Of a DNA stretch of 64,000 nucleotides, positions 6,901-12,900 are shown one piece after another. Where the stretch lies: the IMG/VR virus record IMGVR_UViG_2695420914_000005. One strand, written 5' to 3'. This DNA comes from a virus (Duplodnaviria > Heunggongvirae > Uroviricota > Caudoviricetes). A program made the position numbers. Within the stretch, counting starts at the first letter, position 1; every line of letters begins with the position of its first letter.

Positions 6901-9900
6901 GAAGAGTTTGGCGAGCCTCACATCACTATGCCTAGTGGCCATGTTTATTGGCTAAGAGCTATGGAGAAATATGGTGATAAATGGGAAGTGTTATGAGGGA
7001 TGCGAAGTTATGACTAAATTTGGAAAGCTGGAAGCTCATTTGCTAACTCGTAACTACCGCCATGATGTGCATCCATATAGACAGTGGATCGATGAAAGCG
7101 AAGGAGTTGTTACATTCCCTCTATACAGGTTTGATGGGATGTTGGCCGGGTATCAGACATACAGACCAGGCGCTCCTAAGCAGCATAGCAATCCGAAGAT
7201 GGCCCGGTATTTCACACGAGCGCACGGCAGACAGCTACTATGGGGAACCTATCTTCCTTTAAAAGATGGACCGATATGGATAACTGAGTCGATTTTTAAA
7301 AGTGCAGCAGTGCACAACGCGGGCGGAAATTCGTGGGCGCTGTTAGGTTCGACTTTCTCAGCAGGATTACGTCGTCAACTGGCAATGCTGCCGTATGACT
7401 TTCGCGTAATAGGTGACAATGATGCGGCTGGTGAATCACTTGTGAAGTCTTTCGGAAAAGGTTTTGTGGCCCCGGATCTTGACGAGCTACAACCAAATGA
7501 AGTGTCTCATTTGATTTTTAGCCATAGCCAATAAGCATCCCTTCTCCATTAAGGCCACTAGTTGTGGCCTTAAACAATTTGTTTTCTACCTTTTCTTGTT
7601 CGAGAAAATAACGTTCATTTATCTGGTGCTATGTACCGATCAGTTGCACTGAGTGAGCTTCTTTCATGTATACTGTATAAATGAACAGTATTGAGGGCAA
7701 AACGCTATGGGCTTCCCTTCTCCTGCGGCGGATTATGCTGAGAGCCGTATTTCTCTTGATCAGCAGATAATTAGACATCCTTCAGCGACCTACTTCATGA
7801 GGGCAGCTGATAGTCATCATCGTGAGGGAATATTACAGGGTGCATTGCTGGTGGTTGATTCCTCACTTACCCCGGTTGATGGTTCTCTGCTTGTATGCGC
7901 TCTGGATGGGGAATATCGCGTAAAAAGATACCGGAAGTACCCACGTCAGCATCTGGAGGATTTAAGAACCGGTAAGAAGGAAGCATTGCCAAAGGATGAC
8001 GATGGATGCACGGGCAGCAATGCCGTGTTTGGTGTGATCACTCACATTATCAACGACGCAAGAAGTGGCGAGTTTGATGATTGTCCCGTGATGTAGGAGA
8101 ACTGATTAGGCGGTGCAATGCACCGCCTTTTTATCACACTGCGCGGAATGCGATTTCGCCAGGTATTACTTCACCTTGCCAATACATTTGGGCAGCAACG
8201 CGATCTGCGAGGTCACGATAAATAGCTGTAAATTCGCTATCTGGACGACTAATAACGGTTGGTGTTCCGTTATCCAGATCTTCACGAAGAGAGATATGAA
8301 GTGGCATTTGGCCTAACAACTGCGTGTTGTATTTCTCGGCCAGTTTCTGTGCGCCACCGGTGCCAAAAATTGGCTCGTGATGACCGCAGTTACTGCAAAT
8401 ATGCACACTCATGTTTTCAACGATACCCAGTACCGGCACTTCGACTTTTTCGAACATCACAATGCCTTTCTTCGCATCGATCAGCGCGATGTCTTGCGGC
8501 GTAGTTACCACAACCGCACCAGTTACAGGAATGTTCTGCGCCAGCGTCAACTGAATATCACCAGTGCCCGGCGGCATATCGAGAACGAGATAGTCCAGAT
8601 CAGGCCATAGAGTTTCCTGCAACATCTGCATCAGCGCCTTGCTGGCCATCGGTCCACGCCACACCATTGCATTGTCGTCGGTGACCAGATAACCAATAGA
8701 GTTGGTTGCCAGGCCATGAGACATGATAGGTGCCATGTGAGTACCGTCAGGTGAGGTTGGACGTTGGTTTTCCGCGCCCAGCATGGTTGGAATTGATGGA
8801 CCATAGATATCGGCATCCAAAATACCAACTTTCGCACCTTCAGCAGCCAACGCCAGTGCCAGGTTTACCGCCGTGGAGGATTTACCCACGCCGCCCTTGC
8901 CTGAGCTGACGGCGATAATGTTCTTAACGCCATTAATGCCTGGTTGGTTTTTGACACGCTTAAGCGTGGCAATGTTGTACGACAGCTTCCAGTCAATAGC
9001 CTTTGCGCCAGTGATACGGAGCAGATCACCACTACATTGCTCTTTCAGGTCTTCAAAAGGCTTATTCCACACGAAAGGCATGATTAGTTCGACATGCAGT
9101 GTGTCATCCATCAACGCAACATGGTGTAACGCTTTAAGCGTAGTCAGGTTGTGTTTCAGGGTTGGGTGCTGAAAATTAGCCAGCGTACCGGCTACCATTG
9201 CTCTCAGGGCATCCGGCGATTTGGACTCGCTCATCCCGTCTCCTTTATTTTAATTTGCGCAATTGTCGCCTTGTAGTGTACTCCAGCTACGACATTTAAT
9301 CATTTATGAGAAATGCTGTTATCACATGGCAGACATAAGGCCATTTTGTTACTATCAAGCCCCTTTTCACTACAAAGAAGTAATGCCTACTATGACCCAA
9401 GTCGCGAAGAAAATTCTGGTGACGTGCGCGCTGCCGTACGCTAACGGCTCAATCCACCTCGGCCATATGCTGGAGCACATCCAGGCTGATGTCTGGGTTC
9501 GTTACCAGCGAATGCGCGGCCACGAGGTTAATTTCATCTGTGCCGACGATGCCCACGGTACGCCGATCATGCTGAAAGCACAGCAGCTTGGTATCACACC
9601 GGAGCAGATGATTGGCGAAATGAGTCAGGAACATCAGACTGATTTCGCAGGCTTTAACATCAGCTATGACAACTATCACTCGACGCACAGCGAAGAGAAC
9701 CGTCAGTTGTCCGAGCTTATCTATACTCGCCTGAAAGAGAACGGTTTTATTAAAAACCGCACCATCTCTCAGCTGTACGACCCGGAAAAAGGCATGTTCC
9801 TGCCGGACCGTTTTGTAAAAGGCACATGCCCGAAATGTAAAGCGCCGGATCAATACGGCGATAACTGTGAAGTCTGCGGCGCGACATACAGCCCGACGGA

Positions 9901-12900
9901 ACTGATCGAGCCGAAATCAGTGGTTTCTGGCGCTACACCGGTAATGCGTGATTCCGAACACTTCTTCTTTGATCTGCCTTCTTTCAGCGAAATGTTGCAG
10001 GCATGGACCCGCAGCGGTGCGTTGCAGGAGCAGGTGGCAAACAAAATGCAGGAGTGGTTTGAATCTGGCCTGCAACAGTGGGATATCTCCCGTGACGCAC
10101 CTTACTTCGGTTTTGAAATTCCGAACGCACCGGGCAAATACTTCTACGTCTGGCTGGACGCGCCGATTGGCTACATGGGTTCTTTCAAGAATCTGTGCGA
10201 CAAACGCGGCGACACTACCAGCTTCGACGAATACTGGAAGAAAGACTCCACCGCCGAGCTGTACCACTTCATCGGCAAAGATATCGTTTACTTCCACAGC
10301 CTGTTCTGGCCTGCCATGCTGGAAGGCAGCAACTTCCGCAAGCCGACCAACCTGTTTGTTCATGGCTATGTGACGGTGAACGGCGCGAAGATGTCCAAGT
10401 CTCGCGGCACCTTTATTAAAGCCAGCACCTGGCTGAATCATTTTGACGCCGACAGCCTGCGTTACTACTACACTGCGAAACTCTCTTCGCGCATTGATGA
10501 TATCGATCTCAACCTGGAAGATTTCGTTCAGCGTGTGAATGCCGATATCGTTAACAAAGTGGTTAACCTGGCCTCCCGTAATGCAGGCTTTATCAACAAG
10601 CGTTTTGACGGCGTGCTGGCAAGCGAACTGGCTGACCCGCAACTGTACAAAACCTTTACTGATGCCGCTGAAGTGATTGGCGAAGCATGGGAAAGCCGCG
10701 AATTTGGCAAAGCTATCCGTGAAATCATGGCACTGGCTGACCTGGCTAACCGCTATGTTGATGAACAGGCTCCGTGGGTGGTGGCGAAGCAGGAAGGACG
10801 CGATGCCGATCTGCAGGCGATTTGCTCTATGGGCATTAACCTGTTCCGCGTGCTGATGACGTACCTGAAACCGGTACTGCCGAAACTGACTGAACGTGCA
10901 GAAGCATTCCTGAATACAGAACTGACCTGGGATGGTATCCAGCAACCGCTGCTGGGCCATAAAGTGAATCCGTTCAAGGCACTGTATAACCGTATCGATA
11001 TGAAACAGGTGGAAGCACTGGTGGAAGCATCCAAAGAAGAAGTGAAAGCCACAGCTGCACCGGTAACTGGCCCACTGGCTGACGACCCGATTCAGGAAAC
11101 CATCACCTTTGACGACTTCGCCAAAGTTGACCTGCGTGTGGCGCTGATTGAAAACGCGGAGTTTGTCGAAGGTTCTGACAAACTGCTGCGCCTGACGCTG
11201 GATCTCGGTGGTGAAAAGCGTAATGTCTTCTCAGGCATCCGTTCCGCTTATCCAGATCCACAGGCACTGATTGGTCGTCACACCATTATGGTGGCTAACC
11301 TGGCTCCGCGTAAAATGCGCTTCGGTATCTCTGAAGGCATGGTGATGGCTGCTGGCCCCGGCGGGAAAGATATCTTCCTGTTAAGCCCGGATGCCGGTGC
11401 TAAACCTGGCCACCAGGTTAAGTAATTAAACAACCTCTCTTCGCAATGCCCGGCAACACACCGGGCATTTTCATATAGACACAATCCCTCCTGATTTACA
11501 CAAACCCTAAAACAATTTGTTTTCTACCTTTTGTTGATTGAGATAATAAGCCACATAAGAAAACAACTTGTTTTGGAGTAGTTGAAATGTTGAACATTAC
11601 CCAAGCCTACCAGGTGGCATTGATCAGTTCATCTCATACATCAGAGGAAGATGCTCGCCGATTCATGATCGCAAGCAATGAGCTGGATTGGGTTTCACAA
11701 ATTGATGGCGGTTGTATTGTTCACGCCGGGTTACAGGATGATGTCTGGAAAGACGACTTGCGTCGATATGGTATATCCGAAGGCGCGATTGCTAACATTC
11801 AGAAAGTACTTGATGTAGGCTTTGACTCTGTACATTTTGATTGTGGAGCACCAGTCGTTGAAGGGCTTGAGTGCTGGAACTGGTAACAGATATTAAAGCA
11901 TTGGTAGTTTGTTTTTAGGATTATCAAAGAAATGAAAAAGTTGAAAAGTTTAGAAATCCCTGGGACTGGTTATAAATTCTTTATGGACAACGCGGAGTGT
12001 GCGCCTAACGCGTTGGAAAAAATACAAAGTCTTATCAACAGCCTTACTGAAGAAGCGAAAGAACTGAAGAGCGAGGCGACAAAGGACAATACAGCTAAAA
12101 TCCAATGCTTAAATCTCGTTTCTTATTGTTTATATCAAGTGTCCAAAACACTGATTAAAGGCAATATCTATTACGACGATGAAGACACCTCGACACCTGA
12201 AGAAAAAGATAGCGATGAAGAACTCTATGAAGATATCTCTACCAGTGCGGGTCACGCTGCCTTCGATGCTATGGGTGAATCGTCAGGCATCAGATCGTTT
12301 GTTGAACAGAACAATTCGACAATAATGATTGAGTACTGTGAACAAACAAGCTCCAAGGCCATACATGTTCTTCACGATGTTGCTGCAGGGGTTCGCTGTG
12401 AGGCTGAAGCGGTCAGAAAAGATGTATTTGGTGCAGACAGTAATACCGTGAAAGCGTTCATCAACAGTGCTCTGCTAAATTCTTACTCAAACCTTATCGT
12501 CAATGCGGCACTATGCGCAAATTCAGGTGAAGAACACATTGTCATAACTGAAACCAAACATGAGCATCAACAGTCACCAACCATAGAAGAGGTAACTGCA
12601 TTGGCTATAAAACAGGCGAGTGAAATTAGTGATGAAATTCTCTCTCTGCTAAACAAAACTATGTAAAACATTGATAATGGCGGTCACAATTTGATTCTTT
12701 TCTATAAGAATCCGTTGATCGCCACTACTCCCCTTCCATAGCTGCAATCATATCTTTAAATATCAATAGGTTATGGTTGTTTATACAAATAAGAAAACAA
12801 CTAAATAACAGATCAACGAAACGTCAACGCTTTCACCCGATTTGGTCTAAAAAATTGACGTTTTCACACATCACTTCTTATACCCGTAACTCTACGCAGC

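Follow-up and report, generated by a model that had tools for sequence, protein, structure and literature searches.

A host-derived apbC-metG cassette in SSU5-supergroup phage-plasmids of Escherichia and Shigella: a probable single old capture with a mosaic metG

Background

The closest well-described relative of the element considered here is pLF82, re-annotated as Escherichia phage Cyrano (OV696614)—an inducible siphovirus that is maintained as a plasmid at ~5.5 copies per cell, is induced by ciprofloxacin, makes virions, and shares 81% identity with SSU5 over 65% coverage (PMC9928086). Here, we examine apbC (mrp) and metG, two host-type genes in a 64,000-nucleotide (nt) stretch of DNA (hereafter, the window) from the virus record IMGVR_UViG_2695420914_000005. 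The window represents 64 kb of a circular phage-plasmid of ~110.8 kb that is similar to pLF82/Cyrano and belongs to the SSU5 supergroup, with a siphovirus structural module and plasmid maintenance genes on one circular replicon.

Among related elements, those that carry blaCTX-M-15 form the globally spread pSLy3-like clade J, and pWPMR2-like plasmids form the Shigella sonnei clade K, which is without resistance genes (bioRxiv 10.1101/2025.09.12.675607). The window's element would belong to the pSLy3-like clade J. In epidemic Shigella sonnei, phage-plasmid metG has been linked to antimicrobial survival: as summarised in PMC12452169, Tam et al. 2024 (medRxiv 10.1101/2024.10.27.24316207) described multiple, highly variable metG copies on a phage-plasmid, the expression of which is said there to produce a sub-population with better antimicrobial survival that is predisposed to acquire cephalosporin resistance. 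The window's element likewise has an extra metG on an SSU5-type phage-plasmid.

We consider it highly probable that the window contains a cargo slot occupied by a host-derived apbC-metG cassette that was captured once, long ago, has been inherited clade-wide, and is functional, its metG having since undergone conversion while its apbC diverged.

Results

An intact host-type gene pair inside a phage-plasmid

The features central to this study are the following:

8134-9234, minus strand: apbC (mrp), iron-sulfur cluster carrier ATPase, 366 amino acids (aa; NCBIfam NF008669)
9235-9391, unstranded: apbC/metG divergent control region, defined by alignment with the chromosome and a second plasmid lineage; promoters putative
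9392-11425, plus strand: metG, methionine--tRNA ligase, 677 aa, full length (NCBIfam NF001100)

A sequence-only reading of the window had proposed that full-length ApbC and MetG stand here in the divergent arrangement of Escherichia chromosomes, with phage-type genes beyond them. All of this held. Both proteins scored far above their equivalog cut-offs—759.3 bits for ApbC against NF008669 (cut-off 348; residues 2-366) and 1019.8 bits for MetG against NF001100 (cut-off 587; residues 4-677 of 677)—and the genes are laid out as on the E. coli chromosome, separated by a gap of 157 nt here versus 131 nt there. (The mechanical open reading frame of metG begins at a TTG codon at 9263; 9392 was taken as the gene start.) Comparison with known structures matched MetG to the E. 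coli methionyl-tRNA synthetase (MetRS) crystal structures 1F4L and 1QQT with 1281 bits, and ApbC to the iron-sulfur cluster carrier protein of PDB 8ZKC with 785 bits.

The functional motifs of both proteins are intact. MetG retains its class I motifs (HLGH at 22, KMSKS at 333), its zinc knuckles (CPKC at 146, CEVC at 159), and its C-terminal tRNA-binding/dimerisation domain (TIGR00399 metG_C_term, 163 bits, residues 543-677). At 98.5% protein identity to the E. coli chromosomal copy (95% for ApbC), it has a sole plasmid-specific change, S151A, located between the zinc knuckles; most of the other differences from E. coli occur in other enterobacteria. A deviant Walker A motif (GKGGVGKS) and a conserved CxxC pair mark ApbC/Mrp/Nbp35 proteins, and both the Walker A motif and the cysteine pair (CSNC) are intact in the plasmid protein, being invariant in the window allele and in an 81%-identical second lineage described below. 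The ApbC N-terminus, which had been suspected of divergence, reads MSESKSPD where the chromosomal protein has MNEQSQAKSPE—a deletion of 3 aa.

Base-level alignment with E. coli showed that chromosomal homology starts at the apbC stop codon and stops at the metG stop codon. The chromosomal neighbours (yehE side and DUF4132 side) and the chromosomal terminators are missing from the plasmid, and plasmid-specific hairpins stand in their place. Within the control region, ~25 nt next to apbC and ~55 nt next to metG, the latter including TACTAT and the leader, are kept relative to E. coli, whereas the middle has diverged and contains indels.

The surrounding DNA is that of a phage-plasmid. Over window positions 7000-12700, several circular plasmids of 110,850 bp from independent assemblies, among them NZ_CP095139.1, NZ_MW590712.1, and CP125006.1, show 100% identity, and pLF82 shows 98%. 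Following the annotation of an identical plasmid, the window falls into three blocks: blaCTX-M-15 at its start, a long run of small early/accessory genes, and a structural block with ParB-like genes, terminase, portal, capsid, tape measure, tail fibres, and a DnaB-like helicase. Because the early/accessory block lies on one side of apbC-metG and the structural block on the other, there is phage DNA on both sides of the pair. Virion production and plasmid lysogeny have been proven experimentally for Cyrano, a close relative, and by likeness to it may be expected of this element.

Near-universal carriage of the cassette in the Escherichia/Shigella clade

At 95-100% identity, the plasmid-type cassette was found with a common junction in ~195 plasmids of PLSDB, whose hosts are E. 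coli, Shigella, E. albertii, E. fergusonii, and E. marmotae. Among complete E. coli genomes, 217 of 5426 have the cassette, and every one (5426/5426) keeps a chromosomal copy, which matches only window positions ~8138-11426 at ~90% identity. The plasmids compared are of IncFIB or rep_cluster_488 type (PLSDB typing). The large terminase gene, which served as the backbone marker, is at least 95% identical in 185 PLSDB plasmids, with Salmonella relatives at ~81%; given ~195 cassettes against these 185 close matches, the cassette is near-universal in the Escherichia/Shigella clade. The novelty implied by the sequence-only reading does not survive this comparison, since the segment is essentially a conserved backbone feature of the relatives (~195 cassettes versus ~185 terminases); nor is it specific to this element, being present also in pLF82/Cyrano, in the plasmid of an O104:H4 strain, and in Shigella sonnei plasmids.

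In detail, pLF82/Cyrano and ~200 relatives, including the pECOH89-type NC_023916 and the O104:H4 2009EL-2050 plasmid NC_018651, have the gene order humD-apbC-metG-DUF5983 with the same junctions, and these pLF82/Cyrano-type relatives are 96-100% identical in nucleotides to the window over the cassette. In Cyrano, the two genes are annotated as MetRS and 'MinD' (CYRAN_99 and CYRAN_100). Compared with this group, the window's element adds ISEcp1-blaCTX-M-15, has its own metG mosaic pattern, and has a toprim-gene variant of the left flank that is common to only ~50-60 records. The Shigella sonnei plasmid NZ_CP045933.1 has the same cassette as the window, with 97.5% identity in metG and 98.6% in apbC. 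More distant members of the supergroup, SSU5 and the Klebsiella plasmid pJN2-26, share the backbone in the same order (a DUF5983 orthologue, a DUF4942 methylase, and small early genes) but are without metG, apbC, and humD; their equivalent slot is occupied by LprI, YdfZ, and DUF1380 in SSU5 and by a GFA-family gene in pJN2-26.

A search with the ApbC protein uncovered a second, deeply diverged plasmid lineage in four E. coli assemblies (contigs of GCA_016987495.1, GCA_021861085.1, GCA_016989725.1, and GCA_021582475.1). Its ApbC is 81% identical in protein to that of the window, yet has the same length (366 aa), the same N-terminus, and intact Walker A and CxxC motifs; GC content at third codon positions (GC3) is 42.8%. 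Its metG has 96.9% identity to that of the E. coli chromosome, and the junction on the metG side is homologous to the window's. On the apbC side, the neighbours are genes for BOF, hok, cytochrome c peroxidase, and cytochrome b562 rather than humD, with an IS605-family OrfB nearby.

Matches outside these groups were of other kinds. Some other phage records, such as those of Acinetobacter phage MD-2021a, Microcystis phage MaAM05, and very large uncultured phages, contain MetRS-like genes that show 24-57% identity and come from unrelated sources; none shares the cassette, and several short 'phage' records resemble host fragments. Cassette matches in Salmonella and Klebsiella 'plasmids' proved to have chromosomal contexts (yehE and btsR neighbours), were rejected as plasmid copies, and served only as chromosomal references. 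As a separate observation, CP075030.1, NZ_OP378650.1, NZ_CP141089.1, and CP061244.1 are filed as plasmids but have the chromosomal apbC-metG neighbourhood or are of chromosome size; counts of 'plasmid-borne' metG are inflated by such chromosomal records filed as plasmids.

apbC and metG have discordant ages

The two genes differ sharply in their distance from the E. coli chromosome. Plasmid apbC has 81.7% nucleotide identity to its chromosomal counterpart and a synonymous divergence (dS) of 1.63, whereas metG has 94.3% identity and a dS of 0.28; the ratio of nonsynonymous to synonymous divergence (dN/dS) is 0.022 in both. Between the E. coli and Salmonella chromosomes, dS is 1.34 for apbC and 0.98 for metG, and chromosome-to-chromosome controls gave apbC/metG dS ratios of only ~1.4-1.6. 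Because both genes diverge together in these controls, the five- to six-fold gap in plasmid dS represents a real discordance. Base composition differs in parallel: GC3 of plasmid apbC is 51.8%, against 61.9% for chromosomal apbC and 43-45% for neighbouring plasmid genes, while metG stays at 61%. In neighbour-joining trees, plasmid apbC forms one long-branched clade next to Escherichia, and plasmid metG is nested inside Escherichia.

All plasmid ApbC proteins share the 3-aa N-terminal deletion along with other derived residues. The suggestion, made from the sequence, that the copy was not a recent acquisition is thus strengthened by an apbC at 82% nucleotide identity and dS ~1.6 and by a derived indel in every plasmid copy. 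Of 7 plasmids sampled, 6 have an identical ApbC protein despite nucleotide divergence of 0.3-3.2%, and dN/dS ranges from 0.005 to 0.05 within and between clades; judged by these ratios, both genes are under strong purifying selection. A pseudogene or decaying passenger was ruled out by dN/dS together with the intact motifs. With 98.5% protein identity and dN/dS of ~0.02, plasmid MetG would be expected to methionylate tRNA-Met.

A donor scan covered 80 species chosen by MetG similarity; E. coli itself and Escherichia sp. E1V33 gave its best chromosomal matches. An ApbC protein search returned no chromosomal cluster closer than 95% and did not discriminate among donors. Separately, CP170191.1 ('Enterobacter hormaechei strain B56', a GTDB species representative) does not differ in its metG and apbC coding sequences from the E. 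coli chromosome used (dS = 0) and is probably a mislabelled E. coli record.

metG is a mosaic of plasmid-type and host-identical tracts

Sliding-window identity revealed that plasmids differ in which tracts of metG are 98-100% identical to the E. coli chromosomal gene. Such tracts extend over gene nt ~489-1818 in p7.2.1, ~1008-1249 in the window, and ~195-1249 plus the 3' end in the Shigella sonnei plasmid. With an E. marmotae plasmid allele as the plasmid parent, informative sites were found to cluster: for the window, pLF82, p7.2.1, and the Shigella sonnei plasmid, none of 200 permutations reached the observed maximum chi-square, and for pTHO010, 2 of 200 did. The metG of pET84 showed no significant clustering by the same test (91 of 200). 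The longest exact match to the chromosomal allele is 344 nt in metG and 17-33 nt in apbC, except for one of 80 nt in pLF82 apbC. Even the most diverged 90-nt bins of metG are 88-91% identical to E. coli, versus 77-84% to Salmonella.

These patterns indicate, as their simplest reading, recurrent gene conversion of plasmid metG by chromosomal metG, in which the direction—from chromosome to plasmid—and the mechanism are presumed. apbC would lie outside the reach of conversion, rare short tracts excepted, because it is too far diverged.

The cargo slot and its flanking modules

The features that delimit the cassette and its surroundings are listed here in window order:

7549-7611, plus strand: backbone punctuation module, left copy; terminator-like hairpin at 7549-7573, then a 44-nt repeat
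7671-7690, plus strand: LexA (SOS) box TACTGTATAAATGAACAGTA, identified by reading the sequence; lies upstream of humD
7707-8096, plus strand: humD, UmuD-like S24 peptidase (NCBIfam HumD equivalog, 219.8 bits); P1-type neighbouring cargo, outside the host segment
8108-8128, unstranded: GC-rich hairpin between convergent humD and apbC, from a terminator scan; terminator-like with respect to humD and not chromosome-homologous
11445-11469, plus strand: hairpin AATGCCCGG-caacaca-CCGGGCATT directly 3' of metG, read from sequence; plasmid-specific and terminator-like
11506-11573, plus strand: backbone punctuation module, right copy; 44-nt repeat at 11506-11549 and palindrome AAACAA-C-TTGTTT at 11561-11573
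11587-11886, plus strand: DUF5983 family protein, 99 aa, first backbone gene after the slot, with tblastn orthologues in SSU5 and Klebsiella phage-plasmids

The extent of the slot follows from pGS04EC-1, in which a single DUF4145 gene fills the space from the humD stop codon to the right-hand repeat; because that gene occupies exactly the interval corresponding to ~8097-11497, we take this interval as the cargo slot, essentially the extent that the sequence-only reading had given the host segment. Homology to pGS04EC-1 resumes at the right module, upstream of the DUF5983 gene, and this marks the right edge of the slot. The hairpin at 11445-11469 is without homology to the chromosomal metG terminator and is kept in the divergent second lineage. 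An empty-site search of PLSDB, using left and right flanks joined, found no record in which both flanks meet. The DUF5983 protein, whose name was taken from annotations and precomputed Pfam matches, is 43-46% identical to SSU5_105 and to a pJN2-26 gene (tblastn).

The 44-nt direct repeat (7568-7611 and 11506-11549; copies 89% identical) is real, as had been supposed when promoter/operator modules were said to flank the host segment on both sides, but the left copy flanks humD and not apbC. Because it precedes humD, the repeats bracket humD, apbC, and metG together rather than the host segment alone. In the left module, the repeat holds the palindrome AAACAA-T-TTGTTT, a putative operator, and an extended -10-like TGnGAAAAT. 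The repeat core AAACAATTTGTTTTCTACCTTTT occurs four times in the window (2519-2541, 7572-7594, 11510-11532, and 15948-15970), against 0 expected in shuffles. By their sequence, the AAACAA-N-TTGTTT modules are probably repressor operators with early promoters, and cassettes may be swapped by recombination at them. Palindrome sites of the form AAACAA-N-TTGTTT additional to the four cores lie at 11561-11573 and 13001-13014; some repeat modules have a hairpin before and an extended -10-like sequence after them, and short matches to the module also occur in Klebsiella SSU5-like plasmids.

The gene to the left of the slot has a history of its own. humD is 86-88% identical in nucleotides to P1/P7 humD, and the P1 humD region is annotated as LexA-regulated; the LexA box is retained in pGS04EC-1 though the surrounding upstream DNA is not. 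A P1-type humD cassette in an SSU5-type backbone implies cargo exchange between the two phage-plasmid groups. In three related plasmids—NZ_CP146383.1 (6271-7743 of the compared stretch), NZ_CP148383.1, and NZ_CP072690.1—der/engA stands in humD's place, directly beside apbC-metG, and is ~91% identical to the E. coli chromosomal der. The product of der/engA is an essential ribosome-biogenesis GTPase.

Expression in the reference lysogen

Published RNA-seq of strain LF82 places the pLF82 apbC orthologue at ~9x the prophage background (~92 normalised counts), and the pLF82 humD orthologue, CYRAN_98, was induced ~30-fold inside macrophages (PMC9928086).

Other features of the window

Near the start of the window, blaCTX-M-15 lies at 116-991 and a truncated WbuC/orf477 at 1038-1382 (minus strand). 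NZ_CP095139.1, an identical plasmid, has an ISEcp1 transposase immediately upstream of where the window begins, and the ISEcp1-blaCTX-M-15 unit, which breaks a backbone gene, is located ~7 kb upstream of the cassette. Positions 12667-14233 hold 1.5 kb without an annotated gene in the identical plasmid; AT skew is strong there (0.31), and short repeats, dispersed or in tandem, are present (a 31-nt unit three times at 13058-13149, and pairs ~130-135 nt apart). This region could be origin- or iteron-like, or could encode a regulatory RNA, for which Rfam gave no match; across the whole window, Rfam and tRNA scans returned no matches. A second compositional anomaly, at 49000-50900, combines a local GC peak (0.588) with an AT skew of 0.33 inside the tail fibre/tip genes, in which 120-nt tandem repeats (~2.5 copies, 74-76% matching) lie at 50576-50882.

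Discussion

An old capture with two diverging fates

We favour a history in which the interval from 8097 to ~11497 serves as a cargo slot in the early/accessory region of pLF82/Cyrano/pSLy3-like phage-plasmids. The cassette would have been taken once, long ago, from an Escherichia-related chromosome, and inherited by nearly all members of the Escherichia/Shigella clade; a single old capture is suggested because all plasmid copies share the 3-aa deletion and derived residues, form one apbC clade, and keep the metG-side junction even in the second lineage. It appears to be a self-contained unit, with the chromosomal divergent promoter region kept and a plasmid-specific hairpin ending each gene, and would sit between the plasmid's repeated terminator/operator/promoter modules. 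Since both genes are intact and under purifying selection, a cell with the multi-copy plasmid would have additional MetRS and ApbC. apbC would have become a plasmid-specific paralogue, its base composition drifting toward that of the plasmid, and metG would stay host-like because gene conversion from the copy on the resident chromosome overwrites it time and again. Expression of plasmid metG may, going by the account in PMC12452169, yield a sub-population with raised antimicrobial survival, and by likeness to the Shigella sonnei plasmids of that account, the metG of this plasmid may raise tolerance as well. The idea that a mobile metG could affect host physiology, raised by the sequence-only reading, agrees with the literature as cited there. 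Either the phage or its host may benefit.

Several observations weigh against parts of this history. The placement of apbC as sister to Escherichia is uncertain, as the distances are saturated, and the E. marmotae plasmid allele used as the plasmid parent in the recombination test is itself possibly mosaic. The donor scan found no donor species among its 80, the chromosomes of E. albertii, E. fergusonii, and E. marmotae lying outside it; because this limited scan identified no donor, conversion by the resident chromosome is inseparable from conversion in earlier hosts. A generic sigma-70 scan of the window did not rise above the number of sites in shuffles and failed to pick up the repeat modules; the promoter and operator roles of the repeats are putative. 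Plasmid metG in LF82 is low, though detectable, at ~16 normalised counts (PMC9928086)—its reads may be under-counted, the gene being 94-97% identical to the chromosomal copy—and the tolerance phenotype comes by way of a secondary citation (PMC12452169) and from Shigella sonnei plasmids, not from this exact element.

A bolder extension of the same history holds that apbC is a plasmid-adapted paralogue with a selected role of its own, that metG is held host-like by conversion for the sake of compatibility, and that these plasmids capture essential translation genes recurrently. A selected plasmid-specific role for ApbC is suggested because dS exceeds 1.6, GC3 has drifted, and the second lineage is only 81% identical, yet purifying selection persists. 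Conversion of metG may be needed because MetRS is dimeric and must work with host tRNAs, and recurrent collecting of essential translation genes is suggested because the accessory region also captured der/engA in a few plasmids. We put this extension forward tentatively, at slightly under an even chance.

Alternative explanations

One alternative concerns purpose rather than origin: the cassette may mainly serve the phage or plasmid and not host drug tolerance. It could supply Met-tRNA in lytic growth, create host dependence if the chromosomal copy degrades, or buffer the element's own tRNA-acetylating toxin, and Cyrano does encode a KacT-type acetyltransferase toxin (PMC9928086). Conservation of the cassette clade-wide, irrespective of clinical background, would fit such a role, as would the capture of der, an essential translation-related gene, by the neighbouring slot in three plasmids, and the fact that apbC, without a known tolerance link, is conserved as strongly as metG. 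However, the universal retention of the chromosomal copy in 5426 of 5426 E. coli genomes leaves no dependence visible, plasmid metG is weakly expressed in lysogeny, and antimicrobial survival is the only phenotype reported in the literature, so far as it is summarised in the citing paper. On this balance, we regard a main benefit to the phage or plasmid as unlikely, with an appreciable residual chance.

We judge it improbable that the cassette reflects two acquisitions—an old apbC, and a metG that came later from an Escherichia chromosome, by capture or by replacement of the whole gene, with no ongoing piecemeal conversion. Such a history would account for a metG that is at Escherichia-level divergence throughout, down to its most diverged 90-nt bins, and for the position of the break between deep and shallow divergence, which falls in the intergenic region. 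Against it, the allele-specific tracts and breakpoints need several independent events rather than one replacement, an ancient metG 3' junction and terminator recur in the divergent lineage, and the chromosomal gene order would have to have been rebuilt by chance.

A recent capture from the current E. coli host, specific to this element, has very little to recommend it beyond metG, which taken alone looks young (94% identical to E. coli, with tracts at 98-100%). The mosaic conversion tracts explain that youthful appearance, apbC has 82% identity, a saturated dS, and an altered GC3, and the 3-aa deletion and junction are common to ~200 plasmids and the deeply diverged second lineage; we consider this reading very improbable.

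Finally, there is next to no chance that the window is an integration junction or mis-assembly in which chromosome adjoins a prophage and apbC-metG is the host's own locus: the chromosome does have this gene pair in the same order and divergent orientation, but all 5426 E. coli genomes have a separate chromosomal copy at ~90% identity, homology ends at both stop codons, the yehE and DUF4132 neighbours are absent, and identical circular 110.8-kb plasmids from independent assemblies have phage genes on both sides. Mis-assembly is refuted by the multiple closed plasmids, and the same facts bear out the original proposal of capture rather than an integration junction, no E. coli chromosome being closer than ~90%.

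Significance

The captured apbC-metG segment is real and of some age, but it is an already known and conserved feature of the plasmid family: public records of these plasmids, pLF82 among them, annotate the cassette, and functional work on its metG exists. To what is known, the present analysis makes modest additions that we did not find described in the literature examined and that may be new: the discordance between apbC and metG, the conversion mosaics, the fast-evolving second apbC lineage, and the capture of der. For genome scanning, the appearance of host genes inside a phage is, at this locus, a conserved hallmark of SSU5-type phage-plasmids in Escherichia/Shigella rather than a new event. 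The discordance offers a natural example of how gene conversion may keep a mobile paralogue compatible with its host, and would be worth focused study if it proves undescribed. A second MetRS gene on a multi-copy, transmissible phage-plasmid can alter translation and stress physiology, and because this element also carries blaCTX-M-15, a metG of a kind associated with tolerance and an extended-spectrum beta-lactamase would travel together.

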